From an uncultured Gammaproteobacteria bacterium (GTDB taxonomy: Bacteria > Patescibacteriota > Microgenomatia > UBA12405), in NCBI GenBank assembly GCA_964503465.1, contig CAZCYZ010000001.1, positions 17,583 through 81,582 on the forward strand: a stretch of DNA of 64,000 nucleotides, in the 5' to 3' direction. The translations under genes were made by a program, and so were the position numbers. Of the stretch, positions 11,682 to 36,162 are shown one piece after another. The first letter of the stretch is position 1, and every line of letters starts with the position of its first letter. The notes below the pieces were generated by a model, which saw only the letters and a list, made by a program, of their open reading frames with translations, had not been told where the DNA came from and searched no databases.

Positions 11682-11759
11682 AAGAATACGAAATTATATC
11701 AACTCACAGCCTTCTTGACTATTTAATCCGTCCCTATGATAAAATTCCCTGAATCTACC

Positions 11760-11829
11760 TGCGGGGTAGTGTACGGCTGCACGTGAGGCTCATAATCTCA
11801 CAGACCTGGTTCAACTCCAGGCCCCGCAA
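11760..11829 (+). tRNA. tRNA with CAU anticodon, 70 nt (Met/fMet candidate), U1-A72 first pair and short D-loop
   Basis: tgcgggg-ta-gtgt-acggct-gcac-g-tgagg-CTCATAA-tctca-caga-cctgg-ttcaact-ccagg-ccccgca-a. It is convergent with the other CAU tRNA. Confidence 0.55.
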
Positions 11830-12184
11830 ATAATTCCCACCACTGTTTCCAAGCTGGCTTCTTTACTACCTCGTTAACTTTGGGGTATAGGTTGAGATTT
11901 TTATCCTCCGGTGGCAACACCAACCAGTAATCATTCGATCCCCCAAGTCCCAGCTTGTCTCTGGCCTCTTGCTCCAAATACGCGCTACTGGTTGAATACT
12001 TAATCCTTTGGGTTAATTTTCGGTTTTCTTCAATCAACTTGTCAATTTTATCCTCATTTTCGGCTACTTTCTTGGTGGCTTCCCACAAATTCCCCCACTG
12101 TCTTATAAGGTTGACCCATATTGATATAGTTACCACCAATAACACCCAATCCAAAATTGACCTAAATAACCCTTTCTTCATCAT
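11830..12184 (-). CDS. FtsB/DivIC-like septum formation initiator (the annotated ORF extends to 11798 and would overlap the tRNA)
   Basis: N-terminal TM helix, coiled-coil (KIDKLIEENRKLTQRI) and EQEARDKLGLGG motif typical of FtsB/DivIC. Confidence 0.45.
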
Positions 12185-12220
12185 TAGCTTGTAGATTGTC
12201 CTAATTTATGTTACTATAAG

Positions 12221-13093: not shown

Positions 13094-13117
13094 TTTAATA
13101 ATTAAATTAACCACAAA

Positions 13118-13438
13118 ATGAGCCAACGATTTGTCATTGAGGCCGACAATACCAAATATCCTGCCGCCGTTGTCCGTGCGGCCATTGAAGCTGCCGAGCG
13201 GTACGATGTTTTGCAACGCCCTACTCAAGTTACTTTTGTCCCTGCCCACGATTTTGGTGACGGCAGGTTTGTTGTCCGAGTCACAGTTGATGGCACCGCT
13301 ACGATTGTTCACGACCATTTCCGTTCAGATGGTACTCCAATTGCTAGGGGTACGAGCAGAGTATTGCGAGCCGGAGAAACAAGTAAGTCTCCTGTTCTTG
13401 TTAGTTTCTCCCCCCGGCTCTCTATTTCCTCTAGATAA
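13118..13438 (+). CDS. Hypothetical protein
   Basis: 106-aa ORF with ordinary composition. The overlapping 13131..13658 ORF is low-complexity and probably spurious. Confidence 0.3.
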   Translation: MSQRFVIEADNTKYPAAVVRAAIEAAERYDVLQRPTQVTFVPAHDFGDGRFVVRVTVDGTATIVHDHFRSDGTPIARGTSRVLRAGETSKSPVLVSFSPRLSISSR

Positions 13439-13677
13439 TCAACCCCAAAGGAATCTAAAAGTAGTTACTATGCCCAAAGATCATCTCAAACCCACTCCCG
13501 ACCAAATCCTTCAAAGGCTCACCGTTTTATCTGGTGAAGCCGAAAACAAGTACCTGATGACCAAAGACAAAAAATGGTCTCGTGCCGCCAACAGTATCAA
13601 TCGAGCAGCACAAAAAATCAGCGCAAGTCCCGAATTCCAAGCTCAACGTCCCAAATAATTTTATAATCCCATTTTTA

Positions 13678-14211
13678 TCATCTCATAGCCCCGTAGGCCC
13701 TATCTCGATTCTCCCACCATAAAAGTTCCATAAAGATATTTCTTTTATCTCCTGGGTCAAAATTTGCCTCTAACCACCCTGAGTTATTTTCAACATTTTC
13801 ACTTCCTATCCCCTCCGCCATCCGTCTTAACGCTTCCGCAAAGAACGGTAATTGACCAGCTATACGTATGTCAGGTTCAACCATTGCGTATCTTGCTATG
13901 TCCTGCAATACGAGTGCCGTTGCATCTTCCAAACTCGCCACCGTAGTCACTTCGGTAAACATCTCTGCTGGTAATCTCTGGGCTAATTCCATTCCCCTTT
14001 CCCCAATTTTCCCTACCAACTCCTCGCGACTTGCTATCTTTGACAATTGTCCTCCCCATAGTCCTATGACACCGTTTTCAAATCCTCGCCATCCAGCGTA
14101 AACCCCAGCCTGGGTGGCATATCCGGGAACTCTATCCAAAAAATTTGTAACCGCTACTAATTCTGCAGATTTTGGAGGAAGTCTGTCTTTTGGTGGTTCG
14201 ACCATAATCAC
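13678..14211 (-). CDS. Hypothetical protein (same strand as, and closely spaced with, the downstream ATPase gene)
   Basis: 177-aa ORF with no recognised motif. It sits 31 nt from the start of the 14243..16573 gene. Confidence 0.35.
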   Translation of the reverse strand: MIMVEPPKDRLPPKSAELVAVTNFLDRVPGYATQAGVYAGWRGFENGVIGLWGGQLSKIASREELVGKIGERGMELAQRLPAEMFTEVTTVASLEDATALVLQDIARYAMVEPDIRIAGQLPFFAEALRRMAEGIGSENVENNSGWLEANFDPGDKRNIFMELLWWENRDRAYGAMR

Positions 14212-14242
14212 AGCTTAGCTTATAATCAGCCAAAATACAATC

Positions 14243-16573
14243 CTACAACCTCGCTCGCTTAGCAATTTCACTTTCTACAATCGCCCTTGGCCGGCCGTAT
14301 TTTAATGACGATAATTTCTTAATCATCTCAGCCATTTTGGGGTTCCCTGGTTTCTTTTTCTCCGCCGCCGCCACGTTAATCGAAAATGGTTTTTGTGGTG
14401 TTCCCTTTAGAAGTGTCTTCATATAAATTTCTCCCGTCCCCAAATTTAACAAATCATTCTCTCCAAACTCTGGCGAAAATTGTTTTACCAGGAATCCTGC
14501 ATCCGAAATCCCCACTCTAAAGCTAGCAATTGTTCCCACATTTCCAAAAACGGCATTTTTCACTTCGTCATCCATTTGGGAAATAAACTGGTTGGCCACA
14601 CACAAATTCAAATGATATTTTCGTGCCTCGCTCATAATCACCGCAAAGTCCTGAGTGGCAAAATTTTGAAATTCGTCCACATATAGATAAAAATCTCGCC
14701 GCTCTGCTTCCGGCGTGTCTTGTCGACTCATGGCCGCAATCAAAATTTTGGGAATCAACACCAACCCCAAGAAGGCCGAATTCTCCTCCCCAATTGTCCC
14801 TTTTGCAAGGTTAATTATCAAAATCTTTCCCTCATCCATTGCCTTCCGGAAGTTAAATGACGAAGTCGACTGACCGATTATGTTCCTCATCATCGTATTG
14901 GTAATAAATCGTCCAAACTTTGACACTATATAATCCAGTACTTCCGACTTGTGAAACTCGTTCGTTTGGGCAATCTGATCAGTCCAGTAACGTTTGACCA
15001 TTGGATCAGTTACCTTGGGTAGCATTGCCTGAACATATGATGGATCAGTCAAACATCGTACCACCTCAATAAACGTTGCCCCGGGCTCCATCATCACCGT
15101 CAACATAATATTTCTAATTGCATGTTCAAACCTGGGGCCAACAATCCCCGTTTTATACGGGTCGTACAGTTTATACATCAAGTTAATAATCGAACTTGTC
15201 ACAAAATCTTTTTGCTCGTCTCGATCACATTCCATTACATTAAAGCCCATCGGTCTCTCTGTCATTGACGGGTCAAAATAAATTACATCCTCAACTCTTT
15301 CCGGCGGGATTCGTTCCAGAATACTCTCGTAGGTGTCGTGTGGATCCACAAAGCAAACTCCCTTCCCGGCCTTAATATCCTGTAACGCCATATCGGCCAA
15401 CAGCCACGATTTACCCACTCCCGTTTGTCCCACGATATAAAAATGTCTTTGCCTATCAGTTTCCAGCATGCAAAACTTTTTTGTCACTCCACGGTACAAA
15501 TTATCTCCAATGTACAAGCCCTCCTGCGGGCTATCCACTGGTGCCGCCGCCTTTTTTGCCTTAAGCCAATAAATATTTGGTGTTTCAATTGTCTTGTTTG
15601 GGAAGTGGTAAATTGAGGCCAGTTCGTCGGTTGATAAAATTGTTTTGTTTTTCCACCAAAAAATTACTGGATATTTATAAATAAAATCTGTCATAAACAA
15701 ATGCTTTATCCTTATCTTCCTTCCAGACAATTTGTTCCATGGCGATTCAAGTTGACCAAAACAAGCCTTGATATTTCCAATATTCATTTTGGCCACTTCA
15801 GCCGATGGAGCGCAGGACACAATTCTGATTGCCGTCTCAAAACCAACCTTGCTACACTTTACCTCTACTGCCTCCAATTGTCTTGCGTCTACTTTATAAT
15901 TAGCCTTTTCAGGATTCGCTTCACTCTTTTTGGTTCCACTAATAAACCCTCGTCCACTTTTGGCCCACTCCCCATCAGTTGGTGATATCACCAACTGTAT
16001 CGCTACCGATTCACCCCTATCAAGTTTGGACAACGCTGAGGTAATCGATGATAACGGGTCAGTTGGAATTTCTTTATAAGTTTTTAGTGGATAAAACGGA
16101 GTTTTTTTGAGTCCTAGCCAGGCATATTCTACTTTCCCAGTTTCGGGGTAAATATTGGGTTCATCTACCACCCGTACGTCTGCTCCGGTGTAGGCACTAT
16201 AAATTTGTTTTTCCACCATGTCCTGATACTTTTGCGGCACACTAATATAAAAACGGATATCTTCGGCCGTCCCTACAATTTCCAGGGAGGCACTTTCTTG
16301 AGCCAAAAATCTTTGCAAAAACTTGAATCTAGCCGATTTGTACATACTCCCCAGGGAACTTAGTATTTGCTCCATCGCATCCACCTTCACCTCGTTGTCG
16401 TGTGGTAATGCTACTAATAGAGTCACTAATCCTAATGATTTCTTCTCTCGGTCTTTCCACCTATACCACAAGACCAAAGCATACCCCAATCCTCCCAACA
16501 ATATTCCCACCAGTGTTAATCCCATTAGCATCCAGATTAAGTTAGTCACCACCTGTTCTACTGTCTCAATCAT
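14243..16573 (-). CDS. Membrane-anchored P-loop ATPase of the VirD4/TraG-VirB4/HerA (AAA_10/DUF87) superfamily
   Basis: N-terminal TM helices. Walker A HFYIVGQTGVGKS, Walker B-like FYLYVDEFQNF. Length 776 aa. Domain order resembles type IV coupling/translocation ATPases. Confidence 0.55.
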   Translation of the reverse strand: MIETVEQVVTNLIWMLMGLTLVGILLGGLGYALVLWYRWKDREKKSLGLVTLLVALPHDNEVKVDAMEQILSSLGSMYKSARFKFLQRFLAQESASLEIVGTAEDIRFYISVPQKYQDMVEKQIYSAYTGADVRVVDEPNIYPETGKVEYAWLGLKKTPFYPLKTYKEIPTDPLSSITSALSKLDRGESVAIQLVISPTDGEWAKSGRGFISGTKKSEANPEKANYKVDARQLEAVEVKCSKVGFETAIRIVSCAPSAEVAKMNIGNIKACFGQLESPWNKLSGRKIRIKHLFMTDFIYKYPVIFWWKNKTILSTDELASIYHFPNKTIETPNIYWLKAKKAAAPVDSPQEGLYIGDNLYRGVTKKFCMLETDRQRHFYIVGQTGVGKSWLLADMALQDIKAGKGVCFVDPHDTYESILERIPPERVEDVIYFDPSMTERPMGFNVMECDRDEQKDFVTSSIINLMYKLYDPYKTGIVGPRFEHAIRNIMLTVMMEPGATFIEVVRCLTDPSYVQAMLPKVTDPMVKRYWTDQIAQTNEFHKSEVLDYIVSKFGRFITNTMMRNIIGQSTSSFNFRKAMDEGKILIINLAKGTIGEENSAFLGLVLIPKILIAAMSRQDTPEAERRDFYLYVDEFQNFATQDFAVIMSEARKYHLNLCVANQFISQMDDEVKNAVFGNVGTIASFRVGISDAGFLVKQFSPEFGENDLLNLGTGEIYMKTLLKGTPQKPFSINVAAAEKKKPGNPKMAEMIKKLSSLKYGRPRAIVESEIAKRARL

Positions 16574-23668: not shown

Positions 23669-25447
23669 GTGTCGACCCAGGTTGAAGAAATCAAACAAAA
23701 GCTTGACATTGTTAATATTATTTCCCGTTATGTTCCAATCAAAAAACGTGGTCGCCATTTTGTGGCTCCCTGTCCTTTCCACTCCGAAAAAACTCCTTCT
23801 TTTATAGTTTCCCCCGAACTTCAAATTTTTAAATGTTTTGGTTGTGGAAAAGCTGGTGATATTTATAATTTTATTCAAGAATTCGAACGGGTTGATTTTG
23901 GTGAAGCCCTAGAAATTTTGGCCAAAGAAGCTGGTATTACTCTTGAACGTAGTTCTCAATCTTCCCCCGAAGTCTCCCGCCGCAAACGTCTTCTCGACCT
24001 CCACTCTCAGGTTCAAAAATTCTATCACTATCTGCTAACGTCCCACCCCTTGGGTAAACCTGCTCTTGAATACGTTCTCAAACGGGATATTACTTTGTCG
24101 ACTATCAAACTATTTGGTATCGGTTTTTCTCCCGCTAATTCCTCTCTTCTGGTCAATCATCTTCTCAAAAAAGGTTTCAAGGATTCTGAACTTATCGTTT
24201 CTGGAATTTTTGGTCGCAGCCAATACCAATCTCGTTTTTATGACCGTTTTTCCGGCCGTCTCACCTTTCCGCTTTCCGACCCTCGTGGTCAAATCCTTGG
24301 TTTTTCTGGTCGTCTTCTTCCCGGAGCTAAAAGTGATTTAGCCAAATACATCAATTCCCCCGAAACCGATCTTTATCACAAAAGTCAAATAGTTTTTGGC
24401 CTTCATCTGGCTAGGGAATCAATTAGACTTGCCGGCAAAGTAGTTGTCACCGAGGGGGAGTTTGACATGATCGCCCCCTTTCAGGCCGGTATTACTAATA
24501 TTGTCGCCCTCAAAGGCACTGCTTTTACTCTCGATCAGCTCCAGCTTCTTCGTCGTTACACTAACACTTTGGTTTTGGCTCTCGATTCCGATTTTGCTGG
24601 TTCCGCCGCCGCCAAAAGAAGTATCGAGCTAGCCGATTCTCTTGATTTTGATATTCAAGTTTTAGATCTTGGTGGCCGTTACAAAGATCCCGACGAAGCC
24701 GTTCGTGCCGATCCAGATTTTTTTAAAAATCAATTAAATAACCCTTTACCAATCTGGGATTTCTTCATCAATTCTGCCATTAAAAACTATGGCACCGATA
24801 CTGTTACCGGCAAGCGTCAAATATTAAGCGACGTTCTCCCCTCACTTGTCAAAATTACCAATTCCGTTATTCGTTCTGATTATTTTCACAAACTAGCTAG
24901 GTTAATTAATTCTGATTATGACTCGATAGTTCAAGAATCGGCCAAATACTCTCCCAGCCAAACCAAGTCTGCCACCCCAGTTACCACTAAGCCCGTTCCT
25001 GTTTCTCAAGTTGAAAAGCTTGAAGAATATCTCTTAAGTCTTGTTTTGAGCGCCAAAAAACCTCAAGTTTTAGCCAACCGTCTTCGGTCCGATCTCGTAA
25101 ATTTCACTACTACTCGATTCAAAAATCTTGTTGCCCAATTATTGGCTACCGCCAATTTCGACATCGCCACTTTTGGCTCCAACCTTCCTTCCGAGCTCCA
25201 GCCCACTTTTCAGCACCTTTATTTAGCTGGCACCAGTCAGGATTTAGAGTCCAAGGTTCGTCGCCGGGAAATCGCCCAAACCCTGCAACAACTACGGATA
25301 ATTAGTCTCAAAGATCGACTAAACTCACTTGGGGCTCAAATTGCCAACCGCGAATCTGCTGGTCCCGACGTTGATTTTTCCGATCTCGAAACAGAATATA
25401 ATCAACTTCTTTCAAAACTTTCCCAGTTACAATTAGAAAAATACTAG
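23669..25447 (+). CDS. dnaG: DNA primase DnaG
   Basis: CHC2 zinc finger [11 protein letters not shown]...[23 protein letters not shown]...LALDSDFAG. Confidence 0.85.
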
Positions 25448-25467: not shown

Positions 25468-26553
25468 ATGTCTTCCTCCCTCGACTTTACCAAGATTCGC
25501 CAGCATCTGGTTACTCTCGCCAAAAAGCTTCATTATCTTACCCACGACGAAGTTCTTAAATTAGTCCCCGAGCCGGAAAAATATATTGACGATGTTGACA
25601 ATCTTTTTGATTATCTTTTTGACAAGGGTATCGATGTTTTCGATAAAGTTGAGTCTCAAGAGCTCATTATCAGTGCTGGGTCAAAGACCAATAGTGCCGA
25701 TCTCATGGCTCTTCTAAGCCAAAAAAATAGTGTCGACTCTGTTCGGATGTATCTTAAGGAAATTGGCAAAATCGACCTGTTAACTTTTGCCGAAGAAGTT
25801 TCTTTAGCCCAATCAATCGAACGAGGTTCACCTTCAGCCCGCGAGCAACTCATTAACGCCAATCTTCGTTTGGTTGTCTCTATTGCCAAAAAATATATTG
25901 GCCGTGGTCTAACTTTTCTTGATCTAGTCCAGGAAGGTAATCAAGGCCTAATGCGAGCCGTCGAGAAATTTGATTGGAAAAGGGGATTTAAGTTCTCCAC
26001 TTATGCGACCTGGTGGATTCGTCAGGCTATTACTCGAGCTATCGCCGATCAGGCCAAAACCATCCGTATCCCAGTTCACATGGTCGAGACCATCAATAAA
26101 GTCTACAAAGCCACCAGGGCCCTAACTCAGCGTCTTGGTCACGAACCTAGCACCGATCAAATTGCCCAAGAAGTTGGCATCACTATCGATAAGGTTGAGG
26201 AAATTTATCGTATTTCTCAAGATACTACTTCACTAGCTACCCCGGTGGGGGACGACGAAGATTCATTTCTAGGTGATTTTATCGAAGACACCACCCAACC
26301 TTCTCCCTATGATGAGACCAGCAAAGAGCTACTTCGCGAATCAATCGAGGAAGTACTCGGGAGTCTTGACGAACGTGAAGCCAAAGTGCTAGCTCTTCGT
26401 TTTGGACTTCTGGGCGAAACCCCCAAAACTCTTGAAGAAGTTGGCAAAATTTTTAATGTCACTCGTGAACGTATTCGTCAAATCGAAGCCAAGGCTCTTC
26501 GTAAACTCCGTCATCCCAGCCGTCGCAAGAAATTACAAGACTATCTCGAATAA
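25468..26553 (+). CDS. rpoD: RNA polymerase sigma-70 factor RpoD
   Basis: Regions 2-4: [58 protein letters not shown]. Classic dnaG-rpoD gene order. Confidence 0.9.
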
Positions 26554-26973
26554 TTCCCCATTTCCAAATTCCTTTTTCTCCCCGCTTATCACGTAAGTTA
26601 TCATTGCCAGTACTATCTTGTGGCTAATAATTAGTATCGTTTCGCTGTCTTTATGGTCATGTTTCACATCGTCTACAAACCTGGTCACTCTCCTCTTTAC
26701 CCCTTCGAACTTCTCTTTCTTTGTTTTTGGTGCTATCAATTGGCACATATAAATCGACTGACTATCGTCCTTAACCCTCAAGATTTCGTCTAATGTTTGT
26801 TCACATCTATTAGTCGGCGAGCAATAAATCACCCCAATTTGCTTCCTGATTAATTTTTTTGCCGTTTCTACCGCCTGTCCCACCCCCTGGGCCGTTAGGT
26901 TATTTTCTTCAGCCCTTACCTTATAACCTCTGTTTCTGGCACTTTCTCCGTGTCTTACCAATATTAATTTCAT
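26533..26973 (-). CDS. Histidine phosphatase family protein (phosphoglycerate mutase-like)
   Basis: LVRHGES catalytic RHG motif and a conserved His in IISHKIVL. Confidence 0.6.
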
Positions 26974-27026
26974 CCCAAATTATACCATTGCCAATTTTGG
27001 TCAGCACGTCTACAATTTGCTTAATT

Positions 27027-27377
27027 ATGAAAATCAAATTCACCGTCCTGTCCGCTCTATTTGTTGTTCTTTGTGCTTTGGTTATAAAGTTTAGTCCTCA
27101 AATCGTCACCGCCACTACCGCTCTGTGGTATGACACTGGTACCAAAATCTATAGTCTATCGGCCAACAAAGTTGGTGTCGGTACTTCCAATCCTACCCAG
27201 CAACTTGAAATCAATGGTGGCGTTCGTCTCAATACTAGTACCGCCAGACCCTCTTGCACCACTTCCGTTCGCGGCACCCTTTGGTTTACTTACGGGGTTG
27301 GTACTTCTAAGGATTCTCTCTATCTTTGCGCTCAAGCCGCCGGAACTACTGTTCCTAGCTGGAAAACTATCTACTAG
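27027..27377 (+). CDS. Small secreted hypothetical protein
   Basis: Signal-peptide-like N-terminus MKIKFTVLSALFVVLCALV. Motif VGVGTSNPTQQLEINGGV, as seen in fibre-like repeat proteins. Confidence 0.35.
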   Translation: MKIKFTVLSALFVVLCALVIKFSPQIVTATTALWYDTGTKIYSLSANKVGVGTSNPTQQLEINGGVRLNTSTARPSCTTSVRGTLWFTYGVGTSKDSLYLCAQAAGTTVPSWKTIY

Positions 27378-27991
27378 CAAGACTGCAGTTCTATTCCTAG
27401 TTTTTTTAATTCCTCACCAAACTGTCCAAAGTTTTCGTACACAAAAGCGTTTATTCCCAACTCCTTTGCTCCGGACAACTTATCTTCGCTGTCATCAGAG
27501 TAAACGATTTCATTCGCTTCACATCCAGATCTTTTTATCAATTCCTCAAAAATTCCTTTTTCTGGTTTTAATACCCCAGTCTCGTAAGAGAAAACTGCCG
27601 TGTCAAAATTACTTAGAAATCTAAATCTTTTGTCCAGCCCATCTACTCTGGCTGGAAAATTATTCGAACAGGCTAATATTCTATAGTTATTGTTTTTTAG
27701 CTTATTTATCATTCCTATCACTTCTTCATTCACCTCATACCCCTCAATTAATAGTTCAACTACTTTTTCCCAATTTCCATCTATTTTCCATTCGCTAATG
27801 GCCCATTTCCAAAACTGTTCGTCACTCCAACGACCAGTTTTGTATAGGCTATTCATCTCCTCACTCTTCAAAAACACTCGTCTTGTCTCATCCTCACCCA
27901 CCCCATATTTTTCACTTAAATTTTTTATAAAATTCTCCTTTCCATTTAGAAAATACACCCCATCCAGGTCAAAGGTTATGGCTTTAATCAT
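27374..27991 (-). CDS. HAD-superfamily hydrolase
   Basis: MIKAITFDLDGV motif I (DxDG), and a later GINAFVYENFGQ region. Confidence 0.65.
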   Translation of the reverse strand: MIKAITFDLDGVYFLNGKENFIKNLSEKYGVGEDETRRVFLKSEEMNSLYKTGRWSDEQFWKWAISEWKIDGNWEKVVELLIEGYEVNEEVIGMINKLKNNNYRILACSNNFPARVDGLDKRFRFLSNFDTAVFSYETGVLKPEKGIFEELIKRSGCEANEIVYSDDSEDKLSGAKELGINAFVYENFGQFGEELKKLGIELQSC

Positions 27992-28012
27992 GGGCTATTC
28001 TACCACTGAGAC

Positions 28013-28279
28013 TCATTGAACTATGTCACTTTCAAATACCACTCCGGGTACTGTTATCTGTCCTATTATGTCAATAGTCTCCAGTCTGTGCCCCGTTCCC
28101 CTGGTGGTTGGGCTTCGTGGGTGATTCAGATGGCTGTTCACCGCCATTATTATCGACGCCCTGTCAGTTAGTTTCCCATAGTCATCAGCGATTACTCTTT
28201 GACAAGTAACACAATGTATTCTTCTTTGTGGTCTCCGTTCTTTGTTTTCATCTCCCATAGGTCGTATATTAGCAGACAA
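28013..28279 (-). CDS. Hypothetical protein (possible JAMM/RadC-like remnant)
   Basis: 88-aa ORF. AVNSHLNHPRSPTT weakly resembles the HxHP..S JAMM motif. Confidence 0.2.
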   Translation of the reverse strand: MSANIRPMGDENKERRPQRRIHCVTCQRVIADDYGKLTDRASIIMAVNSHLNHPRSPTTRGTGHRLETIDIIGQITVPGVVFESDIVQ

Positions 28280-28410
28280 ATGTACAAATTAGTGGCTTTT
28301 GGGTCAGTGTTATTCTATAATCAATCCTAACTTTTGCACCTTTTACAACCCACATTACTTCAGTTTTAGTTTAAAACTTCAAATTTTAAATTAAAAATTG
28401 AATAAATATT

Positions 28411-28462
28411 CCCCTGTAGCTCTCCGCCAGCTGGCGGACGGTAGAGGCTCGCCTGTTAAAAT
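28411..28462 (+). pseudogene. Partial tRNA-Asn (5' portion to anticodon loop) with a 16-bp palindrome inserted in the D-loop
   Basis: cccctgtagctc-TCCGCCAGCTGGCGGA-cggtagag-g-ctcgcctgttaa, then diverges. The intact tRNA-Asn is 310 bp downstream. Confidence 0.5.
28416..28444. repeat. 29-bp perfect direct repeat, left copy, containing the 16-bp perfect palindrome TCCGCCAGCTGGCGGA
   Basis: gtagctctccgccagctggcggacggtag is identical to 28718..28746. Confidence 0.85.
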
Positions 28463-28467
28463 TAAGT

Positions 28468-28746
28468 GTGTATATCGTTTACGCGATTTACCACCCAAAA
28501 TCAGGAAAAATCTATATAGGTCAAACAGTCGACCTAGGTAATAGATTAAGGGAACATAACGATCCTAACTGCCAGCGCCATTTATATACCAAGAGGATCG
28601 GGATCGGCTGGGAAGTTCTTTATAAGGAAACTCAGCCGACCAGACAGCTTGCCTTAAAGCGAGAAAAACAGTTAAAAAGTTATCAAGGCAGATTGTTCAT
28701 TAAAAAACACATTACAGGTAGCTCTCCGCCAGCTGGCGGACGGTAG
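28468..28746 (+). CDS. GIY-YIG nuclease family protein (UPF0213/YhbQ-like, 92 aa, GTG start)
   Basis: VYIVYAIYHPKSGKIYIGQTVDLGNRLREHN matches GIY-YIG with the conserved Arg and His-Asn. The C-terminal 9 codons are encoded by the right direct repeat, and the stop is the last triplet of that repeat. Confidence 0.65.
   Translation: MYIVYAIYHPKSGKIYIGQTVDLGNRLREHNDPNCQRHLYTKRIGIGWEVLYKETQPTRQLALKREKQLKSYQGRLFIKKHITGSSPPAGGR
28718..28746. repeat. 29-bp perfect direct repeat, right copy
   Basis: Identical to 28416..28444. It is followed by a degenerate anticodon-stem-like sequence ggcaccgcctgtaat. Confidence 0.85.
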
Positions 28747-28772
28747 GGCACCGCCTGTAATACTCAATACAT

Positions 28773-28845
28773 TCCCCTGTAGCTCAGTCGGTAGAGCGCT
28801 CGCCTGTTAAGCGATCGGTCCGTGGTTCGAGTCCACGCGGGGGAG
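28773..28845 (+). tRNA. tRNA-Asn (anticodon GUU)
   Basis: tcccctg-ta-gctc-agtcggta-gagc-g-ctcgc-CTGTTAA-gcgat-cggtc-cgtgg-ttcgagt-ccacg-cggggga-g is a complete cloverleaf. No encoded CCA. Confidence 0.8.
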
Positions 28846-28947
28846 CAAGCAAAATATATCCTAAAGATACGTAACAAATGTTTCTATGGTATGGCAAGAG
28901 TGACAAGTATATAATGTGGTTAATCAATAATTAAATTACTCAAATCC

Positions 28948-29973
28948 ATGTCTCCTCAAAAAGAAAAAATAGTTACCTCAGAACCGGATCTTCCAATTGA
29001 TCGTTTACGTTTAGCCTTCCGCCTTCAAGAAAGAGTCGAAGAAATCGACCAGGCTTTAGAAATAGCGGCACGGCCAAAGGATGTTTTAGGATTCGATGGT
29101 GCCCAGCCCGCCACCTTAAACGAGTTTCATCAACTTCGTGAAGCATATCAAGCGAGGTTGGATCAATCTCTCGCAAGTATGGATCCTTCTACTCGCGAGC
29201 AGTATGAGGCTATTTCTACGGCACGTCAGACTGCCAGAGAGGAAGAAGATAGTAGGGTACAAGCCTATCTAAAAGACCATTTTGGTGTCGATTGGGTCGA
29301 AACAGGTAGAACGCGGTTTGAGTGGAAACGTGAACATCCCCTTAATGTTGATACCGAATTGAATCCTGGTCATACCTGGGAGCAATATGAGGTAACACCA
29401 GAAGTCATGGCTGAAAAGGCTAGATTGTCTATGGAATTGTCACTCGTCTTATATGTCAGCCAACTTGCCACCGATCCCAGAGATCGTGTTGCATTTGATT
29501 TGAGCCAAGAAGCCTCTCAGGATTTACAGCGTATTTCTAAATGCCTAATGATACAAACGAATCGCATGCTGACGACTAATGGTGAGCAAAGAGACAGAAT
29601 CAGGCGGTTTGAAGATGTTGCCTGGAACTTTCGCAGAGAGACTGATGGGTTTTATCGGGCATTCGAACAAATCGCCGGAGATTCTATTTTCGAACCATAC
29701 AAGAAAGAGGAACCTCCAACAGAAGGCACCAAAATTGAGGAAGAACCTGCAGAAGTTAAATTCTATACCAGAGAATGTCCTCACTGTCAGGTTCAGTTTC
29801 ATAGCCGAAAAGCCGAGGGAAAATGCTACAATTGCACCCTTGACGAAATTACCCACGGGAATCCTCCCGAGGAAGGTGACTTTAACTCTGCCGGCATTAT
29901 ATCCGGTACACTCACAGATGAAGAGTGGAAAAATCTTCAAGCCGATCTGGCTGCAGTTGAGCTGGGTAGATAG
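28948..29973 (+). CDS. Hypothetical protein with C-terminal zinc-ribbon (CPHC...CYNC)
   Basis: 341-aa ORF. Higher GC than the flanking genome. C-terminal CxxC...CxxC. Confidence 0.4.
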   Translation: MSPQKEKIVTSEPDLPIDRLRLAFRLQERVEEIDQALEIAARPKDVLGFDGAQPATLNEFHQLREAYQARLDQSLASMDPSTREQYEAISTARQTAREEEDSRVQAYLKDHFGVDWVETGRTRFEWKREHPLNVDTELNPGHTWEQYEVTPEVMAEKARLSMELSLVLYVSQLATDPRDRVAFDLSQEASQDLQRISKCLMIQTNRMLTTNGEQRDRIRRFEDVAWNFRRETDGFYRAFEQIAGDSIFEPYKKEEPPTEGTKIEEEPAEVKFYTRECPHCQVQFHSRKAEGKCYNCTLDEITHGNPPEEGDFNSAGIISGTLTDEEWKNLQADLAAVELGR

Positions 29974-30036
29974 TTCTGCTCCCATTCTTCCATCCAAATG
30001 CTATTCTATCGGTGAGTTTTTGTGGATATAACTGTT

Positions 30037-30070
30037 TCGAATGTTCTCCATCTCGTGGAGCATTGTGACC
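30037..30070. promoter_or_regulatory. Conserved palindromic upstream motif, copy 1 (tttcgaatgttctccatctcgtggagcatt)
   Basis: Near-inverted repeat AATGTTCTCCA / TGGAGCATT about 100 bp upstream of the 30141 start. A second copy lies at 30615..30648. Confidence 0.45.
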
Positions 30071-30140
30071 TCATATTTATAAATAAATCTGTGGCGATAT
30101 ATGTTTGAATTGAAGTTGCTAAACAGTTTATAATCACCTT

Positions 30141-30590
30141 ATGAAAGATGAATCATTAGTAATTACTGATTGGGATATGGATTATGCCGATCTCTCGCAG
30201 AGGGATGAGTATGAGGAACTTAAAGCCCAAATTACTGAAGTCTACGGTACACCAGAACGTGATTCAGTAGATTGGCAAGCGTGTCTTGATGCCACGCTAC
30301 TTGCCGTTTACCGTTCAGAAGTATCTCGTTGTCAAAGTCATGTTGTATCACCACCTGGATCAGAGACGGAAGAAGTCAGGCCGGCTGTTTTGGAGTCACA
30401 TCTTCGCATCGCTGAACAAAGATTAGCGATACACCTGGATCGTGTTGATCAAAGATGCTTGCAACCAGAATATGATACCGCTTTCGAACTTGCTGGCAAA
30501 AAATTAGACAAAGTATCCGAAGGTAATCCATACGCTGATATGTTTGTTCTTGCTCACTTAGGTGCTGGGTCGGTTCAGTTGGTAAGATAA
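30141..30590 (+). CDS. Hypothetical protein
   Basis: 149-aa ORF. TATAAT hexamer ends 6 nt before the ATG (tataatcaccttATG). Confidence 0.4.
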   Translation: MKDESLVITDWDMDYADLSQRDEYEELKAQITEVYGTPERDSVDWQACLDATLLAVYRSEVSRCQSHVVSPPGSETEEVRPAVLESHLRIAEQRLAIHLDRVDQRCLQPEYDTAFELAGKKLDKVSEGNPYADMFVLAHLGAGSVQLVR

Positions 30591-30614
30591 TCTAGAATTT
30601 GGAGAGCAGTAATT

Positions 30615-30648
30615 TTTCGAATGTTCTTCGTTCCGTAGAGCATTAAGT
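30615..30648. promoter_or_regulatory. Conserved upstream motif, copy 2 (tttcgaatgttcttcgttccgtagagcatt)
   Basis: Shares TTTCGAATGTTCT...GAGCATT with copy 1. Lies ~120 bp upstream of the 30769 start. Confidence 0.45.
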
Positions 30649-30768
30649 AACACCAAAAATTCTAAAATCATTCCACTCCTCGAGCCAGCAAAATATTTCC
30701 GAAGAATACGTACATTAACTCATGACACATAGTTTAGTAGAAGTGTTGTTCACTGCTATAATCATCCT

Positions 30769-31602
30769 ATGAACATAACCGCCGACACCAAAGTCATTGC
30801 TCGTCTTCATACCAAACCCAGTCCCAGAGGTCTTAATATCTATAATCCATTCTTTCAAGAATCTAATCTCAATGCTGTCTATCTACTCTTTTTTAACCCT
30901 GACCCGGCTCCTCTTATTTCAGCCATGCGTGGGTTTAATATCGCCGGAGCCATCACAGCCGGATTTGAGTCGGATGACAGACTTCCATCTCTTTTGGATG
31001 AAGTCGATGACGTTTCTGCCTACACGGGTCGAGTCGGGTTCATCACTAATAATGGTGGGAAATTAATCGGATCATCACAAGGTGGTCAGGGATTACTAAG
31101 ATCTATCCTCAAACATGGCCATATTGAAAATAAGAAACTTGTTATAGTCGGTTCTGGCAATATCGCCAAAGGATTGTTGTTTAACATAAAAAAACAGTTT
31201 CCTGATCCTCCCGAAGTAGTTCTAGTTAACCGCACAATTGAAAAGGCGCTATCCATTCAAAGAGATTTTTCATTTGTCACTTCCACCAAGTCAGTCACTG
31301 ATCTGTCTACCGAAACTGGTGATATTTTAGTTAATGCTACTGATATTGGTGGCAGTCAAGCTGACGATGTTTACACCGAATCAATCGTTGGCAACTTTCA
31401 GACGATAGCCGATGTCACTTTTGAAACCGAGAACACTAATCTGGTTAATCTGGCTAAGAAATTGAATAAACAATTCTCAACCGGCTGGGATATGTTTGCT
31501 TATCAAGGCCAGGTTATTCTCGAAAGTATCTTTCATACAGGCATTGATATTGGTTCGCTCAGAAAGCATGTTGTAAGTGGATTATCAGAAGTTGTTTCTT
31601 AG
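30769..31602 (+). CDS. Shikimate/quinate 5-dehydrogenase-like protein (AroE family)
   Basis: N-terminal substrate-binding domain resembles the AroE family. NAD(P)-binding region has VIVGSGNIAKG (Rossmann glycine motif) and VNRT...DILVNATDIG. Confidence 0.55.
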   Translation: MNITADTKVIARLHTKPSPRGLNIYNPFFQESNLNAVYLLFFNPDPAPLISAMRGFNIAGAITAGFESDDRLPSLLDEVDDVSAYTGRVGFITNNGGKLIGSSQGGQGLLRSILKHGHIENKKLVIVGSGNIAKGLLFNIKKQFPDPPEVVLVNRTIEKALSIQRDFSFVTSTKSVTDLSTETGDILVNATDIGGSQADDVYTESIVGNFQTIADVTFETENTNLVNLAKKLNKQFSTGWDMFAYQGQVILESIFHTGIDIGSLRKHVVSGLSEVVS

Positions 31603-31644
31603 TTTATGCCCGTGTAATTTAGGCATTCGATAGCTAATCAACAT

Positions 31645-32757
31645 ATGTCCGAGAATCCTCAGTCAATAGTCAGTCGAGAAAAACCACCAGTTGACCTATT
31701 GGCCGACGAAGTTGTCAGATTAAGAGAATCACTCGAAAGACGTGGCGAACAATTGGGTTTTTCCAACATCCTAGCTTTGTCTTATGTTGTCGAACTTTAT
31801 TCTAGCGTTAATGGTCAACAATCCCTAGTGGAGTGGTTTCGTGACCCAAAATCTGACGAAGAAATTTTTACTCTTCAACAATCAGTGGACTTAGGACATG
31901 TACTCGAAAATGCCAATAGGTTATCGGCCATTCATGGGATAACTCCTCCTCCGTTATCTACCGATCTTACTGTTCCCCAAGATCAATTGGCTATTCCCAG
32001 GACACCCGCCCAAGTTGATCAAGAGATTCTCGATGCTACTGAAACCTTACCCGGTGAACGTCTAATTACCCTTTTTCGCTATGTTGATACCGTTGGTTGG
32101 AGAGATGACACCCAGTCCATGGAGCCAGATGAGATTAGATCATTTATGGATGAACCGTCTAATCAGGTAATCAATCACGCTCGAGGCTTACGATTTCCCG
32201 TGGCAAGTATTGAGGACGCTCGAGGCATTAGACATGAATCGTTATTTGCTCTTAGCCAGCTAATTACATATCCAAGATTTGTTTTGGATAGAACTGATGA
32301 TGTTGTTTATTCCGGATTAGTCAATGAACCAAGACACCTTGACATCCTTCGTGAACACTTACTCCTCTCGGAAAGGGAGTCACTGGCTCGCTCTGTTCAA
32401 AGGGCTGACAAAGTTGTTGCTTTTACCTCCGCATCAGTTGGTAGTCAAGGTCTATGTAATTGGGGATTTTTTTGTATTGAAATGCAGGTCCCAGAGAGAT
32501 TAATTCTCAATGTTCGAGACTTGTGTATTCAGGGCGATGAAGTTATGGGTGACAACGATGGAGTTGATCCGGACACACGACAGAGACTATCACTCTCAAT
32601 TCATTCCTACCCACCTCCACTAGAAACTTATCAAAGTGTTGGCGGTATTCACCTAGACGAAATGGCTGTTCTTGGGGGTATTAGGCGAGAGTGGGTAAGG
32701 TCTGTCATCGACATTAGGGACCAATCAATTGTGTGGCAGAAATCGTCAGACAAGTAA
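31645..32757 (+). CDS. Hypothetical protein
   Basis: 370-aa ORF with no recognised motif. Confidence 0.4.
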   Translation: MSENPQSIVSREKPPVDLLADEVVRLRESLERRGEQLGFSNILALSYVVELYSSVNGQQSLVEWFRDPKSDEEIFTLQQSVDLGHVLENANRLSAIHGITPPPLSTDLTVPQDQLAIPRTPAQVDQEILDATETLPGERLITLFRYVDTVGWRDDTQSMEPDEIRSFMDEPSNQVINHARGLRFPVASIEDARGIRHESLFALSQLITYPRFVLDRTDDVVYSGLVNEPRHLDILREHLLLSERESLARSVQRADKVVAFTSASVGSQGLCNWGFFCIEMQVPERLILNVRDLCIQGDEVMGDNDGVDPDTRQRLSLSIHSYPPPLETYQSVGGIHLDEMAVLGGIRREWVRSVIDIRDQSIVWQKSSDK

Positions 32758-32842
32758 TTTTCTATCTACCCCTTGCTGTGTCGTTGTTCGTCCAAATATA
32801 ATACGATTATAGCCTATAACATGATATAATCCCATTCATATT

Positions 32843-33484
32843 ATGCCCGTAACTATTGAACAAGTTGGCCATGCTTGGGATGGTCTGACTGCCGAGGATC
32901 ATGCTTATGGTCAAATTGTCGCCACTGGTATGGCCGCTATCCTTGAATCGCGTGGATATGGTCATGATGCCGGGCCAATTTGGCAAACCATTGGTGTCAG
33001 TCAGGAAGTTCAACTTAGACTTGACCCACAGGAGACATTTACTAGGGCAATTGAGTTAGTTATGTTGAATGATGGTGGCGATCCCGACTCTCAACAGTTT
33101 GTTCAATGGCTTCAGGGCAATGGCCTTCAACAACTTACCGATCCTCGATTGACGCCTTACCTTGAACCTTATCTTGCTACTTCTGACAGCACCCCGTTTG
33201 TTAATCGACTTCTAAGTTTTGTCAATCATCCCATTCCTTATGATCAAATATCTACCAAGCACGACCTTGGCTATTTTCCTCAATGTTACCTAACCTTTAT
33301 TTCTGTCCTACTCGCTTCACGTCTTAGTGGTGCTGGCAACACCGAGTTGATTACTCGCCTTAGGGAAGCATCATCAGAATTACTCACTACTCCTGACTTT
33401 CAAAGAATTGTTGGTCTCTATGCTACTATTACCGACACTCGGCAATTTGCCGAACAATTATCAATCTCTACATTTAATGCCTAA
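32843..33484 (+). CDS. Hypothetical protein
   Basis: 213-aa ORF. A TATAAT lies 14 nt upstream of the ATG. Confidence 0.4.
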   Translation: MPVTIEQVGHAWDGLTAEDHAYGQIVATGMAAILESRGYGHDAGPIWQTIGVSQEVQLRLDPQETFTRAIELVMLNDGGDPDSQQFVQWLQGNGLQQLTDPRLTPYLEPYLATSDSTPFVNRLLSFVNHPIPYDQISTKHDLGYFPQCYLTFISVLLASRLSGAGNTELITRLREASSELLTTPDFQRIVGLYATITDTRQFAEQLSISTFNA

Positions 33485-34010
33485 AGATCGTTTATATGGC
33501 CTTCCCGTACGTACTAAGGTCGTCAAAATAACTCAAGGTTGGCACGGTCCGTTTAGTCATCAGGATCTCGGCGGTGGTCGAACAGATATGACCTTTGCTG
33601 TTGATTTTAGTGCCGAAGAAGATACCCCGGTTGTAGCCGCCAGAGCTGGTAAACCCAGAATTGTTGTCGATCATCACCAAAGCCACTACGAAGGTGATGA
33701 CCCAAAAATAGGTTTAGCCGTTAACACCACCAATCTGGTGATTATCGAGCATCGAGATGGCACCGAAGTGGAATATACAGTCTATTCTCACCTTAAGCCA
33801 GGCAGTGTGCCAGAAAAAGTTAAAAACGGACAAATGGTTGATGAGGGAGAACAAATAGGTCTATCTGGAAAAAGTGGTTGGGTTCCTGTGCCCCATGTTC
33901 ATTTCCAGGTTTTGTCTCGTAAATCTCCAGATCAAAGATTAAGAAGTCGCCCAGTACGTTTTAGGGGTTATAACGGTCCACTGGAAGACGATAAGATTAG
34001 AGGAAAATAA
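33480..34010 (+). CDS. M23-family (lysostaphin-like) metallopeptidase domain protein (start uncertain; the annotated ORF starts at 33408)
   Basis: HQDLGGGRTDMTFAVDF, GEQIGLSGKSGWVPVPHVHFQV. HxxxD and HxH are typical of the M23 family. Confidence 0.55.
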   Translation, partial: PKDRLYGLPVRTKVVKITQGWHGPFSHQDLGGGRTDMTFAVDFSAEEDTPVVAARAGKPRIVVDHHQSHYEGDDPKIGLAVNTTNLVIIEHRDGTEVEYTVYSHLKPGSVPEKVKNGQMVDEGEQIGLSGKSGWVPVPHVHFQVLSRKSPDQRLRSRPVRFRGYNGPLEDDKIRGK

Positions 34011-34044
34011 CATCCTTATAACATTTCAAATGCTATAATTACCC

Positions 34045-34350
34045 ATGACCATTGAAGCTACTAAACGCCAAATCGGTATATCTAGGGTCTTTGATGTCTT
34101 AGCCAAAGTCCATATTGAAAAACATTTACCAGGAGAGGTTCCGGTACTACGTCAACTACAGTGGGAAAACCCAGGGTCTGCCGATGCTAGATTGTTAAGT
34201 ACAGTTATTACCTTAAGACAACAAGGCAAAATGCCCGATGCTCGCACTATGTGGGCTGATGCAGAGAGAATGTACGATCTGCCTGTCGATAGACAAGGAG
34301 ATGCTTATCTTGCTTACCACCAGAGAGTATTTAGCGATCAATCAAAATAA
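34045..34350 (+). CDS. Hypothetical protein
   Basis: 101-aa ORF. TATAAT ends 6 nt before the ATG. Confidence 0.35.
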   Translation: MTIEATKRQIGISRVFDVLAKVHIEKHLPGEVPVLRQLQWENPGSADARLLSTVITLRQQGKMPDARTMWADAERMYDLPVDRQGDAYLAYHQRVFSDQSK

Positions 34351-34355
34351 TAATT

Positions 34356-34844
34356 ATGGCAAAAACTGAATTTGCATCTGAACTACGTCGATTAACTGAG
34401 AAACATGGACCAAAACTTGGCCTAAAGCCGAATGAAGTTGTTGGTGCGGTTATGGTTTGGCCGTCTAAAGCGGACATGCGACGATTTCAGGAAGGCATAC
34501 CGGAAGAATTATTAGCCCTCAAGGAGCTTAAGGCCGTTCAAGAAACTGGACAAGTCGTTGCTGAATTAAACGCTGGCAATATCCCACTTACTCGAGAACA
34601 AATTCAAAGGCTATCGCCACGAAGAGGAGTTGGAATTCGTATTCTTTGGAGTCTAAGTACTGGCGAGGATACTGCCACAATAAATGAAGAATTGGATGGT
34701 GGTACTAGACGAGGTATCAGAACTCGAGTTCTCACTGATACAGAAAAACAATCAGTCGGTATTCTCGATGACGTTGTTACCGTCACTACCCTTCGATTAC
34801 GTCCTGATAGTCCTATTCTTAGAAAAGTCAAACCAGCATCTTAA
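34356..34844 (+). CDS. Hypothetical protein
   Basis: 162-aa ORF, 5 nt after the previous stop. Confidence 0.35.
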   Translation: MAKTEFASELRRLTEKHGPKLGLKPNEVVGAVMVWPSKADMRRFQEGIPEELLALKELKAVQETGQVVAELNAGNIPLTREQIQRLSPRRGVGIRILWSLSTGEDTATINEELDGGTRRGIRTRVLTDTEKQSVGILDDVVTVTTLRLRPDSPILRKVKPAS

Positions 34845-34958
34845 AAATTTCATCCACACAATGACTGAAAAAACCCAATGGTTATTTGATAGAAGTAAAT
34901 TAATGCGTGGTGCATCTCCAGTTACTCTAGAGGTCGAACTTACCCCCCAGAACTGGCT

Positions 34959-35240
34959 TTGTTAGAAGAAATTCGGGCCCTCGAAGATAGTCCTGAAGTT
35001 GGCCACAGTGTTGCTTCGGGTTCTGGATATATGAGGCAGTATGAAACAGAAAAACGAGCCCCCTTTGGTTATCGTTTGACCAGACCAAGGGGAGAGGTTT
35101 TGGCTGACGCCAGAGCCAGTCGTGATTATCTTCGTCAAAATCTCGCGGGAATTGATAGACAGTCATCTGAATGTTCTACTCAAGTTAGGGGAATCATCTC
35201 CAGACTAAACAAAGTGCTTGGCGAGGAAGAAGATAAATAA
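34959..35240 (+). CDS. Hypothetical protein
   Basis: 93-aa ORF. Weak. Confidence 0.25.
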   Translation: MLEEIRALEDSPEVGHSVASGSGYMRQYETEKRAPFGYRLTRPRGEVLADARASRDYLRQNLAGIDRQSSECSTQVRGIISRLNKVLGEEEDK

Positions 35241-35301
35241 TCCGTCACCCACTTCCTCATACCTGTACTATTCATTCGGGGGAGCCCAGTATAATATACT
35301 C

Positions 35302-35727
35302 ATGAAACGTGTCATCTCTGCCGGTGGAATAATCACCAAAATAGAAAACGATCAGCTCAAGATTTGTCTTGTCCGATTAAGACCTCCAATGAAGGGTTAT
35401 GTTTTTCCCAAAGGTCATGTTGAATTGGGTGAAACTTATGAACAAACTGCCCTCCGAGAGGTGGCCGAAGAAACCGGATTGTCTAATTTAACTATCAAAC
35501 AGAAGTTGGGCGTTGTTCAAAGACAATCAACTGAAAACGACGGCACTCAAGTGACTAAGAATATTCATCTTTATTTGATGACTACCGATAGTTTTCAGCA
35601 TAACCAATCAGACGAAAGATATGAATGGTTTACTATTGACGAGGCTCTCAAAGCTCTTAATTTTATTGAAGAAAAAGAGTTCTTATTCAAAAACAGAGAT
35701 CAAATTTGCGACTCCGATCAGCTCTAA
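35302..35727 (+). CDS. NUDIX hydrolase
   Basis: Nudix box GHVELGETYEQTALREVAEETGL (GX5EX7REUXEEXGU). The start was taken at MKRV, with a TATAAT ending 8 nt upstream. Confidence 0.7.
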   Translation: MKRVISAGGIITKIENDQLKICLVRLRPPMKGYVFPKGHVELGETYEQTALREVAEETGLSNLTIKQKLGVVQRQSTENDGTQVTKNIHLYLMTTDSFQHNQSDERYEWFTIDEALKALNFIEEKEFLFKNRDQICDSDQL

Positions 35728-35750
35728 ATCTCCACCACTCCCCGAGCACC

Positions 35751-35787
35751 AAAAATCCCCTCCATCACGGAGGAGATTTTAGTTTTT
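35751..35787. terminator. Bidirectional intrinsic terminator
   Basis: aaaaa-tcccctcc-atcac-ggaggaga-tttt, lying between convergent genes. Confidence 0.45.
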
Positions 35788-35799
35788 GTAAACAGAACT

Positions 35800-36162
35800 T
35801 TACTGGCTGTTGTTCATTCCACAACCTCTACCACTCCCATTTCCTCGCCCCATTCCATATTTGGCTCTAAAAGCATTCAATAGGGTAGGGTCACCTTTTT
35901 GAGCCGTCAGTTGAGCTGTCGCAAACTCTTTGAAGTTAGATTCGTTGACGAATCGAGTGGCACCACGTCCGGCCATATTGGCGACCCAGGCTTTGTAATC
36001 ACCTTTTTGAAAGGCAGTCACGTTGACAGTGTGTCTGGCTTCTGTGTAATTAGGGCCACGAACTGTGGCATCACCACGATAAGCAAGAACCGGGGCAAAT
36101 GATTTAACAGCTACTAAGCCCAGTGCTATCGCGGCGATACCAAGAGCAATTTGAGTTTTCAT
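35800..36162 (-). CDS. Small secreted hypothetical protein
   Basis: Signal-peptide-like N-terminus MKTQIALGIAAIALGLVAV. Gly/Arg-rich C-terminus. Confidence 0.35.
   Translation of the reverse strand: MKTQIALGIAAIALGLVAVKSFAPVLAYRGDATVRGPNYTEARHTVNVTAFQKGDYKAWVANMAGRGATRFVNESNFKEFATAQLTAQKGDPTLLNAFRAKYGMGRGNGSGRGCGMNNSQ

Follow-up and report, generated by a model that had tools for sequence, protein, structure and literature searches.

A tRNA-Asn island in a Shapirobacteria-like bacterium, probably a patchwork of separately acquired small gene modules

We analysed a 64,000-nt stretch of contig CAZCYZ010000001.1 (assembly GCA_964503465.1), referred to in full length as the window, in which ten genes on one strand occupy ~7 kb directly downstream of a tRNA-Asn gene. 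This region is probably a flexible (accessory) tRNA-Asn island, a patchwork of small modules that were acquired separately by a Shapirobacteria-like member of the candidate phyla radiation (CPR). The window is part of a bacterial chromosome, with the genes of DnaG (23669-25447) and RpoD (25468-26553) located just upstream of the island. The RpoD sequence is 84-86% identical to that of metagenome-assembled genomes (MAGs) named Candidatus Shapirobacteria or Parcubacteria; therefore, the host was classified as a CPR (Microgenomates-type), Shapirobacteria-like bacterium. In what follows L002, L086 and L087 are related contigs sharing island genes, L004-L008 are relatives of the Shapirobacteria type and L084 is a Woesebacteria MAG.

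The left anchor of the island is a tRNA-Asn(GTT) gene at 28773-28846 of the plus strand (ARAGORN; Rfam tRNA, 64.8 bits). The island begins ~1 nt past this gene, the first protein-coding gene starts 101 nt past it, and ten open reading frames (ORFs), all on the plus strand, follow from 28948 to 35727; the identical ten proteins appear in public gene calls. In order, these are p341 (28948-29973) and p149 (30141-30590), both acidic orphans and the latter a singleton; a 277-aa protein of the AroE/shikimate dehydrogenase fold (30769-31602); p370 (31645-32757), which belongs to an orphan family; a module of five genes, p213 (32843-33484), M23 (33477-34010), p101 (34045-34350), p162 (34356-34844) and p93 (34959-35240, TTG start); and a NUDIX hydrolase (35302-35727). 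A bidirectional intrinsic terminator called at 35759-35776 marks the right end. The original prediction, made from the sequence alone, had described ten same-strand genes after tRNA-Asn closed by a bidirectional terminator, among them shikimate dehydrogenase-family, M23 and NUDIX proteins, and all of this was borne out, the three assignments having support from Pfam, NCBIfam and PDB. The seven proteins said to have no recognisable motif (341, 149, 370, 213, 101, 162 and 93 aa) indeed matched nothing in Pfam, NCBIfam, PHROGs or PADLOC, and permissive Pfam searches (E up to 5) together with PDB sequence searches gave nothing usable for the orphans searched. Neither a signal peptide nor a transmembrane segment was found in any of the ten proteins, none of them matched a recombinase in Pfam, NCBIfam or PHROGs, and an Rfam scan detected the tRNA only. 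All ten proteins are singletons at 90% identity; among 5.8e9 proteins, other clusters were found for p370 (two), p341 (one) and p213 (three).

Several parts of the island were found elsewhere in different company. The homologue of p370 in L002 (85%) has wholly different neighbours, and the nucleotide homology between the two loci (83%) begins 2 nt ahead of the ATG and ends 7 nt past the stop codon; judged by these boundaries, p370 appears to move as a single gene. The p370 family has three members and evolves under purifying selection, with a ratio of non-synonymous to synonymous substitution rates (dN/dS) of 0.11-0.16. A profile search among 1.84e9 representative sequences returned only the family itself plus one match, to a 2,833-aa BapA/Big_13 adhesin, which was rejected as an artefact, its E-value summing 17 weak repeats at 24% identity. 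In L002 the two genes that follow p370 (3392-5030; 313 and 155 aa) have GC of 0.48, markedly above that of their neighbours, and encode Ala/Arg/Pro-rich proteins; this pair is probably another foreign cassette pair in that array.

The p341 protein has a C-terminal CxxC...CxxC zinc ribbon. Its sole homologue (45%) is encoded in the Woesebacteria MAG 43 nt after tRNA-Met, so that both known members of the family sit immediately 3′ of a tRNA gene. There the p341 homologue interrupts a tRNA-Met/DivIC/Xer cluster that the window carries uninterrupted at 11.6-13.1 kb. The five-gene module, in turn, is present in L087, collinear with window positions 32960-35135 at 73% nucleotide identity. Amino acid identities are 63% for p213, 73% for M23, 80% for p101, 74% for p162 and 79% for p93, the last value covering the 61 residues that L087 contains at its end. 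The gene upstream of the module in L087 is methyltransferase-like and unrelated to that in the window. Since p341, p370 and the five-gene block were each encountered in other genomes with the remaining two absent, the ten genes do not form one system. Co-occurrence of the ORFs elsewhere, which was to be looked for, was seen for the five-gene block only.

The tRNA-Asn gene is the source of a repeated element of ~85 nt, which runs from the tRNA 3′ end through ~50 nt of downstream sequence and recurs in the window and in related contigs. The reference copy, AAATATATCCTAAAGATACGTAA...ATGGTATGG, lies at 28820-28895 (+) and was defined by alignments (nhmmer E = 1.5e-15, seed copy). Remnant 1 (30655-30734, +) is a decayed tRNA-Asn 3′ part with flank, whose core at 30678-30712 matches 28843-28873 over 31 nt at 84% (p = 0.0005); it scored E = 1e-12 with nhmmer (seed copy) and matches the T-stem of the L004-type tRNA-Asn (p = 0.012). 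The true tRNA end and remnant 1 form a direct repeat that brackets p341 and p149, the segment with zero skew (see below). Remnant 2, of type B, CGGGGGAGCC..AGTATAATATA, comprises the tRNA-Asn 3′ terminus with flank (35254-35315, +; core 35276-35298, p = 0.002), supplies the −10 box of the NUDIX gene and is homologous to L002 3155-3244 by blastn. A further repeat of 30 nt is located after p341 (30035-30064, +), 83% identical to 30615-30644 after p149.

In the related contigs, the L086 copy keeps the T-arm (16/17, p = 0.001) and L002 keeps CGGGGGAGCAAG (12/12, p = 0.001); three copies of type A match the T-stem of the L004-type tRNA-Asn allele with p of 0.012-0.035. An nhmmer profile built from seven copies was run against 1.45 Mb in all. 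It found two copies that were not among the seeds, L002 8494-8575 (E = 5e-9) and window 35254-35315 (E = 0.004), and had no match with E < 1 in ~75 unrelated loci. Within the window the element is confined to the island. The starts of seven of the 12 copies are no more than ~15 nt away from the stop codon of the gene that precedes them on the same strand. Copies are also found where homology breaks off and where genes have decayed: in L002 a C-terminal fragment of M23 follows p370 and a remnant, and in L086 M23 is truncated after 22 codons, at a remnant. These pseudogene fragments suggest deletion and reshuffling at the remnants. No conserved fold was detected in the element (RNAalifold, eight copies, 0 pairs), nor any Rfam match.

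An exact 16-mer of the element also occurs in seven IMG/VR contigs; the matches do not extend and were treated as coincidence. One phage in the same database (L093/L097/L099, 34% GC) carries two separate pieces that match the element almost exactly (16/16 and 19/20) along with two 12-mers; two of the positions are L099 4073-4088 and 5565-5580. All of them fall inside ORFs of the portal/capsid region, on different strands. Such co-occurrence is unlikely by chance (a rough estimate gives 6e-4), with no coherent interpretation.

The island was said to be GC-richer than the flanking genome and to differ in codon usage. The GC difference is marginal (0.426 versus 0.417 elsewhere, rank 69 of 286 same-size windows; coding GC 0.433 versus 0.418, p = 0.03), whereas GC at first and third codon positions (GC1, GC3) and third-position skew are strongly distinct. 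GC1 is 0.573 versus 0.490 (p = 7e-4) and GC3 is 0.328 versus 0.393 (p = 1e-4). Third-position skew is a mutational signature. Native genes of the window have a plus-strand GC3 skew of −0.40±0.16 independent of gene orientation; for pooled native plus-strand genes the GC3 skew is −0.45 and the corresponding AT3 skew −0.38. For the island these values are −0.14 (binomial p = 8e-18) and −0.13 (p = 4e-22). The GC skew of the whole region is 0.005, with every other 7-kb window of the 64 kb at −0.105 or below.

The deviation is uneven between segments. The GC3 skew is 0.00 for p341 and p149 together (p versus native 5e-10; −0.04 and +0.11 separately), −0.12 for p370 (9e-5), −0.15 for the module from p213 to p93 (2e-6) and −0.18 for NUDIX (0.04); the AroE-like gene, at −0.35, is native-like and not different from native genes. 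Third-position skew in the island is not yet in equilibrium with the host strand. Most simply read, this means that the larger part of the island is a recent addition to this strand of this genome. Island proteins are rich in Glu and Arg (Glu 8.2% versus 3.8% in native plus-strand genes); the raised GC1 and this richness are the protein-level face of the same compositional effect. The C/T-rich strand carries most genes of the window, including dnaG and rpoD, and it is the strand bias that depresses Glu to 3.8% in native plus-strand proteins. A likelihood test of synonymous codons against pooled flanking genes gave no difference (p = 0.82) and was replaced by the strand-aware GC3 and AT3 tests; the former was underpowered because its reference pooled genes of both orientations, and the genome is strongly skewed between strands. 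Where strand bias is extreme, third-position skew can reveal recent arrivals that GC content misses.

Comparison with relatives points to variability of the same site. The five Shapirobacteria-type relatives (RpoD 84-86% identical) keep the order DnaG-RpoD-HisPhos, the match of L008 being to RpoD only; conserved synteny reaches further upstream in L004, L005 and L006, and tRNA-Asn directly follows HisPhos in L004 and L006. None of the ten island genes was found in L004-L011. Other content occupies the island slot in L005 and L006: in L005 the slot, before a conserved ArsP permease gene, is filled with other genes, and in L006 the distance from tRNA-Asn to the conserved gene p120 is ~2 kb versus ~7 kb in the window. 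Neither a lack of compositional deviation nor conserved synteny of the block in relatives was observed, and therefore the idea of horizontal acquisition at a tRNA hot spot survives, with the genes absent from relatives, the skew unequilibrated and tRNA-Asn remnants inside the island.

Genes of the island have a TAnAAT box 11-18 nt before the ATG and no Shine-Dalgarno sequence, like many native genes, in which the box is located 11-15 nt before the start codon (starts 5206, 9904, 23669, 40635 on the minus strand, and 56427). This layout suggests that leaderless or very-short-leader mRNAs are common in the organism. Promoters that share the layout of the host suggest donors with the same expression grammar, i.e. 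related CPR bacteria. In the reading that we favour, the island consists of at least four to five independently mobile modules, delimited as p341, p149, the AroE-like gene, p370, the block p213-M23-p101-p162-p93 and NUDIX, every one carrying a leaderless-style promoter of the host type. In the mechanism that we propose, DNA would enter through recombination that targets the 3′ end of tRNA-Asn or displaced copies of it, and the newer arrivals, p341 and p149 with their skew of 0.00, would adjoin the tRNA; recombination between repeated remnants would then delete and reshuffle modules. The recombinase must act in trans, because the island encodes none.

A number of observations weigh against this picture. 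The relatives, which were to be checked for an empty tRNA-Asn site, are distant (typical proteins are 50-55% identical), so that the absence of the ten genes from them is no true within-species comparison with an empty site. No integrase, excisionase or transposase is present in the island, and the sole recombinase gene in the 64 kb, of Xer type, is at 12221-13093, 16 kb away. The order of skews is not strictly newest-by-tRNA, given that the AroE-like gene is native-like and p370 and the module lie beyond it. A tRNA-Met 3′-end direct repeat after the Woesebacteria homologue of p341 was not significant (p = 0.15). The element also carries promoter-proximal sequence, and its spread could be promoter duplication. 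Finally, the structure prediction for p370 was unusable (mean model confidence, pLDDT, 40.9), and the function assigned to the five-gene module below is a guess.

The main mechanistic uncertainty is indeed whether the element might have no role in gene arrival and be a promoter module or a regulatory one duplicated ahead of genes, or else a non-autonomous repeat of small size. Its best-conserved half (AAATATATCCTAAAGATACGTAA..ATGGTATGG) stands ~40-70 nt upstream of TATAAT and ATG in several copies, it has no conserved secondary structure, and in L002 it also follows ordinary-looking genes (MerR/GyrI, Ser hydrolase). Copies include, however, tRNA-internal sequence (the T-arm in L086, the acceptor end in type B) and coincide with homology breakpoints and truncated genes, and those of the window occur only in the island; we consider this alternative unlikely, though it deserves to be kept in mind. 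Much the same can be said of vertical inheritance, in which the island would be a fast-evolving lineage-specific region with a composition set by amino-acid content, expression or local mutation. Such a region would share the leaderless-type promoter layout with native genes, as the island does; its overall GC is close to native, the skew of the AroE-like gene is native, and a strict test for an empty site would need closer relatives than those compared. What makes this explanation unlikely is that the largely synonymous third-position skews differ from those of native plus-strand genes (p = 8e-18 for GC, 4e-22 for AT), that modules have different neighbours in other genomes, that tRNA-Asn remnants lie at junctions and that tRNA-Asn and p120 are ~2 kb apart in L006 and ~7 kb apart here. 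An outside chance goes to a more ambitious reading, that Microgenomates (CPR) capture gene cassettes with a system, integron-like in function, that recombines at the tRNA-Asn element. It would accommodate single-gene cassettes, a site that starts at the stop codon and the same cassette in different arrays; the sites would be linear and tRNA-derived and the recombinase unlinked or unrecognised, p341 being a candidate. If the repeats were true recombination sites, this would be a new mechanism of cassette capture.

The content of the island had also been likened to that of a defence or effector island, and a single co-functioning system of ten genes (NAD(P)-binding, NUDIX, peptidase and unknowns) was accordingly weighed. 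The compact same-strand layout closed by one terminator would suit it, as would the location in a variable hot spot and a weak match of NUDIX to the candidate PDC-S07 of PADLOC-DB 2.0 (29.8 bits, E = 9e-8). This match is generic and the other nine proteins have none in PADLOC; the AroE-like protein lacks the catalytic residues, skew is heterogeneous between segments, internal tRNA remnants divide the parts, and p341, p370 and the five-gene block were found separately rather than together. The suggestion of a defence system did not hold up, and we regard it as very unlikely. Hardly more credible, and in our judgement the least probable, is a degraded prophage or phage-derived satellite integrated at tRNA-Asn. 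A tRNA gene is a fitting integration site, and M23 and NUDIX match PHROGs such as endolysin, tape-measure peptidase domains and phage NUDIX; against this stand the absence of structural, replication, integrase or lysis-cassette genes, seven orphans with no PHROG match, DNA searches of 50,697 phage records and 72,556 plasmids without a match, and no relatives of p341, p370, p213 and p162 in IMG/VR.

Among the parts of the favoured patchwork, the five-gene module is its sole multi-gene functional unit. It is preceded by a 22-nt promoter block, AGCCTATAACATGATATAATCC (32811-32832, +), located upstream of p213 and identical in the window and L086. The p213 and M23 genes overlap by 8 nt, with M23 coupled translationally to p213, and gaps of 34 nt and 5 nt follow. 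The dN/dS ratios are 0.10-0.15 for p213, p101 (0.14) and p162 (0.15); for M23, dS was saturated and gave no ratio. Together with p370, the island genes with measurable dN/dS (0.10-0.16) look like real genes. The model of p213 is an all-alpha HEAT/ARM-like solenoid, for which a Foldseek search against PDB returned nothing significant; p162 is basic (pI 9.6). The M23 domain scores 55.8 bits against a gathering score of 28.7 for PF01551, with PDB matches and an alignment to lysostaphin. Like peptidases of the LytM/lysostaphin type (and the degenerate EnvC, NlpD, DipM and ActS), it keeps HxH (PHVHF) and the Asp of HxxxD. Unlike LytM-type enzymes, it has Thr in place of the first zinc-ligand His (in the window as well as in L087), lacks a signal peptide or transmembrane segment, and has a translationally coupled HEAT-like partner upstream and three small orphan genes downstream. 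A His conserved further upstream (FSH[QK]D) might serve as a substitute zinc ligand. The module could tentatively be seen as an effector that cleaves peptides or peptidoglycan, together with a cognate partner that binds it (for immunity or as a chaperone) and with small accessory proteins, a possibility that we hold with low confidence.

The AroE-like protein aligns over its full length to TIGR00507 (18-267 of 270) at 86.6 bits against a cutoff of 200.2; the Pfam NAD-binding domain is reached with 24.9 bits against 24.3, and all NCBIfam equivalogs are far below cutoff. It shares with the AroE family (including the shikimate dehydrogenase-like HI0607, PDB 1npy) the full-length two-domain alignment and the glycine-rich dinucleotide loop, GSGNIAKG. 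It differs in the catalytic residues: aligned with 1nvt and 2egg, it has ITAG..FES in place of the motif with the Lys (NVTIPHK) and SSQGG in place of that with the Asp (NTD). The gene is also stand-alone, with no other shikimate-pathway gene among the island or scanned flanking genes. As far as these residues tell, the protein is probably an NAD(P)-binding pseudoenzyme. The NUDIX protein has an intact Nudix box (GX5EX7REUXEEXGU), GHVELGETYEQTALREVAEETGL, and scores 66.1 bits in Pfam against a cutoff of 21.1.

To the left of the tRNA, a GIY-YIG gene (28468-28746) is located between two pseudo-copies of the tRNA-Asn 5′ half within 28416-28767 (+), as repeat finding revealed; this gene with flanking repeats had been anticipated. 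The pseudo-copies (28416-28465 and 28718-28767) are 84% identical, both have the D-loop replaced by the palindrome TCCGCCAGCTGGCGGA, and the second encodes the final codons of the GIY-YIG ORF. L004 has a GIY-YIG homologue at 821-1048, flanked by tRNA-Ile and tRNA-Met, and L005 has one in its variable slot (10354-10614). From its surroundings the unit looks like a tRNA-targeting mobile gene. It is part of a 1.8-kb insert: HisPhos and tRNA-Asn are ~100-130 nt apart in L004 and L006, and in the window 26973-28773 holds, besides the GIY-YIG unit, a HAD hydrolase gene (27374-27991) and a small ORF (28013-28279), both on the minus strand. Therefore, the 5′ side of the tRNA is variable too.

On the right, the conserved gene p120 (35800-36162, −) is 46% identical to L006 13887-14249. 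Its strand relative to RpoD is opposite to that in L006, and its plus-strand GC3 skew of +0.26 fits a recent local inversion at the right border of the island. Further on, the segment 36000-47000 has lower GC (0.35-0.41), and several of its genes have weaker skew (−0.15 to −0.21). This segment encodes a sigma factor of the extracytoplasmic function (ECF) type, the ArsP permease, a DsbD-like protein, a methyltransferase and a HEAT-repeat protein, as well as a 1116-aa CARDB/CarboxypepD_reg surface-type protein, and may be a second, older variable region. In L005 the equivalent slot (10974-15107) encodes a 1377-aa protein with a GPPGTGKS P-loop, helicase-like judging by this motif, along with a nuclease-like protein and small paralogues that look secreted; the same hot spot is filled differently there, possibly with defence-type genes.

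Elsewhere in the window there is a tRNA-Ile gene with anticodon TAT (UAU), unusual in bacteria, at 11006-11082. The gene is kept in two Shapirobacteria relatives, L004 (707-781) and L006 (1315-1390), and in the Woesebacteria MAG (L084 3463-3537). It forms a cluster with two tRNA-Met genes in the window and likewise in L004 and L006; in L084, ~3 kb separate it from the tRNA-Met genes, and it is located past the p341 homologue, DivIC and Xer.

Bacteria of the CPR have tiny genomes with few recognisable mobile elements, and how they gain and lose genes is poorly understood. The locus offers a concrete picture of such turnover, with single genes and a small operon probably gained, reshuffled and lost at decayed tRNA copies. 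It also defines a conserved operon of five genes around an atypical cytoplasmic M23 protein and its HEAT-like partner, a probable AroE-fold pseudoenzyme and several orphan families that evolve under purifying selection. Within the collection of papers searched, such arrays were not described for CPR.

The closest parallel is with the genomic islands and tycheposons of Prochlorococcus, in which serial integration at one tRNA pushes older elements inward and leaves partial tRNAs through the island (10.1101/2020.12.28.424599). Both adjoin a tRNA, have scattered partial-tRNA repeats with the newest material by the tRNA, carry mostly unknown cargo and decay remnants, and reside in small streamlined genomes. 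In contrast to tycheposons, the island has no integrase or replication module, even as fragments; each of its units (0.5-2.5 kb) is a single gene, or in one case a small operon, rather than an element of several kb; its repeat includes ~50 nt of non-tRNA flank with promoter-proximal sequence; and its host belongs to the CPR (Microgenomates). Integron arrays and clusters of attC sites lacking integron-integrases (CALINs) resemble it in the small same-strand cassettes of mostly unknown function, the repeated site usually just after the stop codon and the occurrence of the same cassette in different arrays. They differ in that the repeat here is tRNA-derived and each gene has its own promoter. 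An integron was excluded on both of its defining features: there is no IntI in the island or within 16 kb, and no attC-like hairpins, an inverted-repeat search having found no attC-like arms at the junctions. With classical tRNA-integrated islands the locus shares insertion directly 3′ of the tRNA, direct repeats of the tRNA 3′ end, absence from (distant) relatives and compositional deviation, but not an element-encoded integrase or recombinase. The island is thus a variant of a structure whose kind is well known, in a poorly studied phylum, with mostly single-gene units and one conserved operon and without a resident recombinase.

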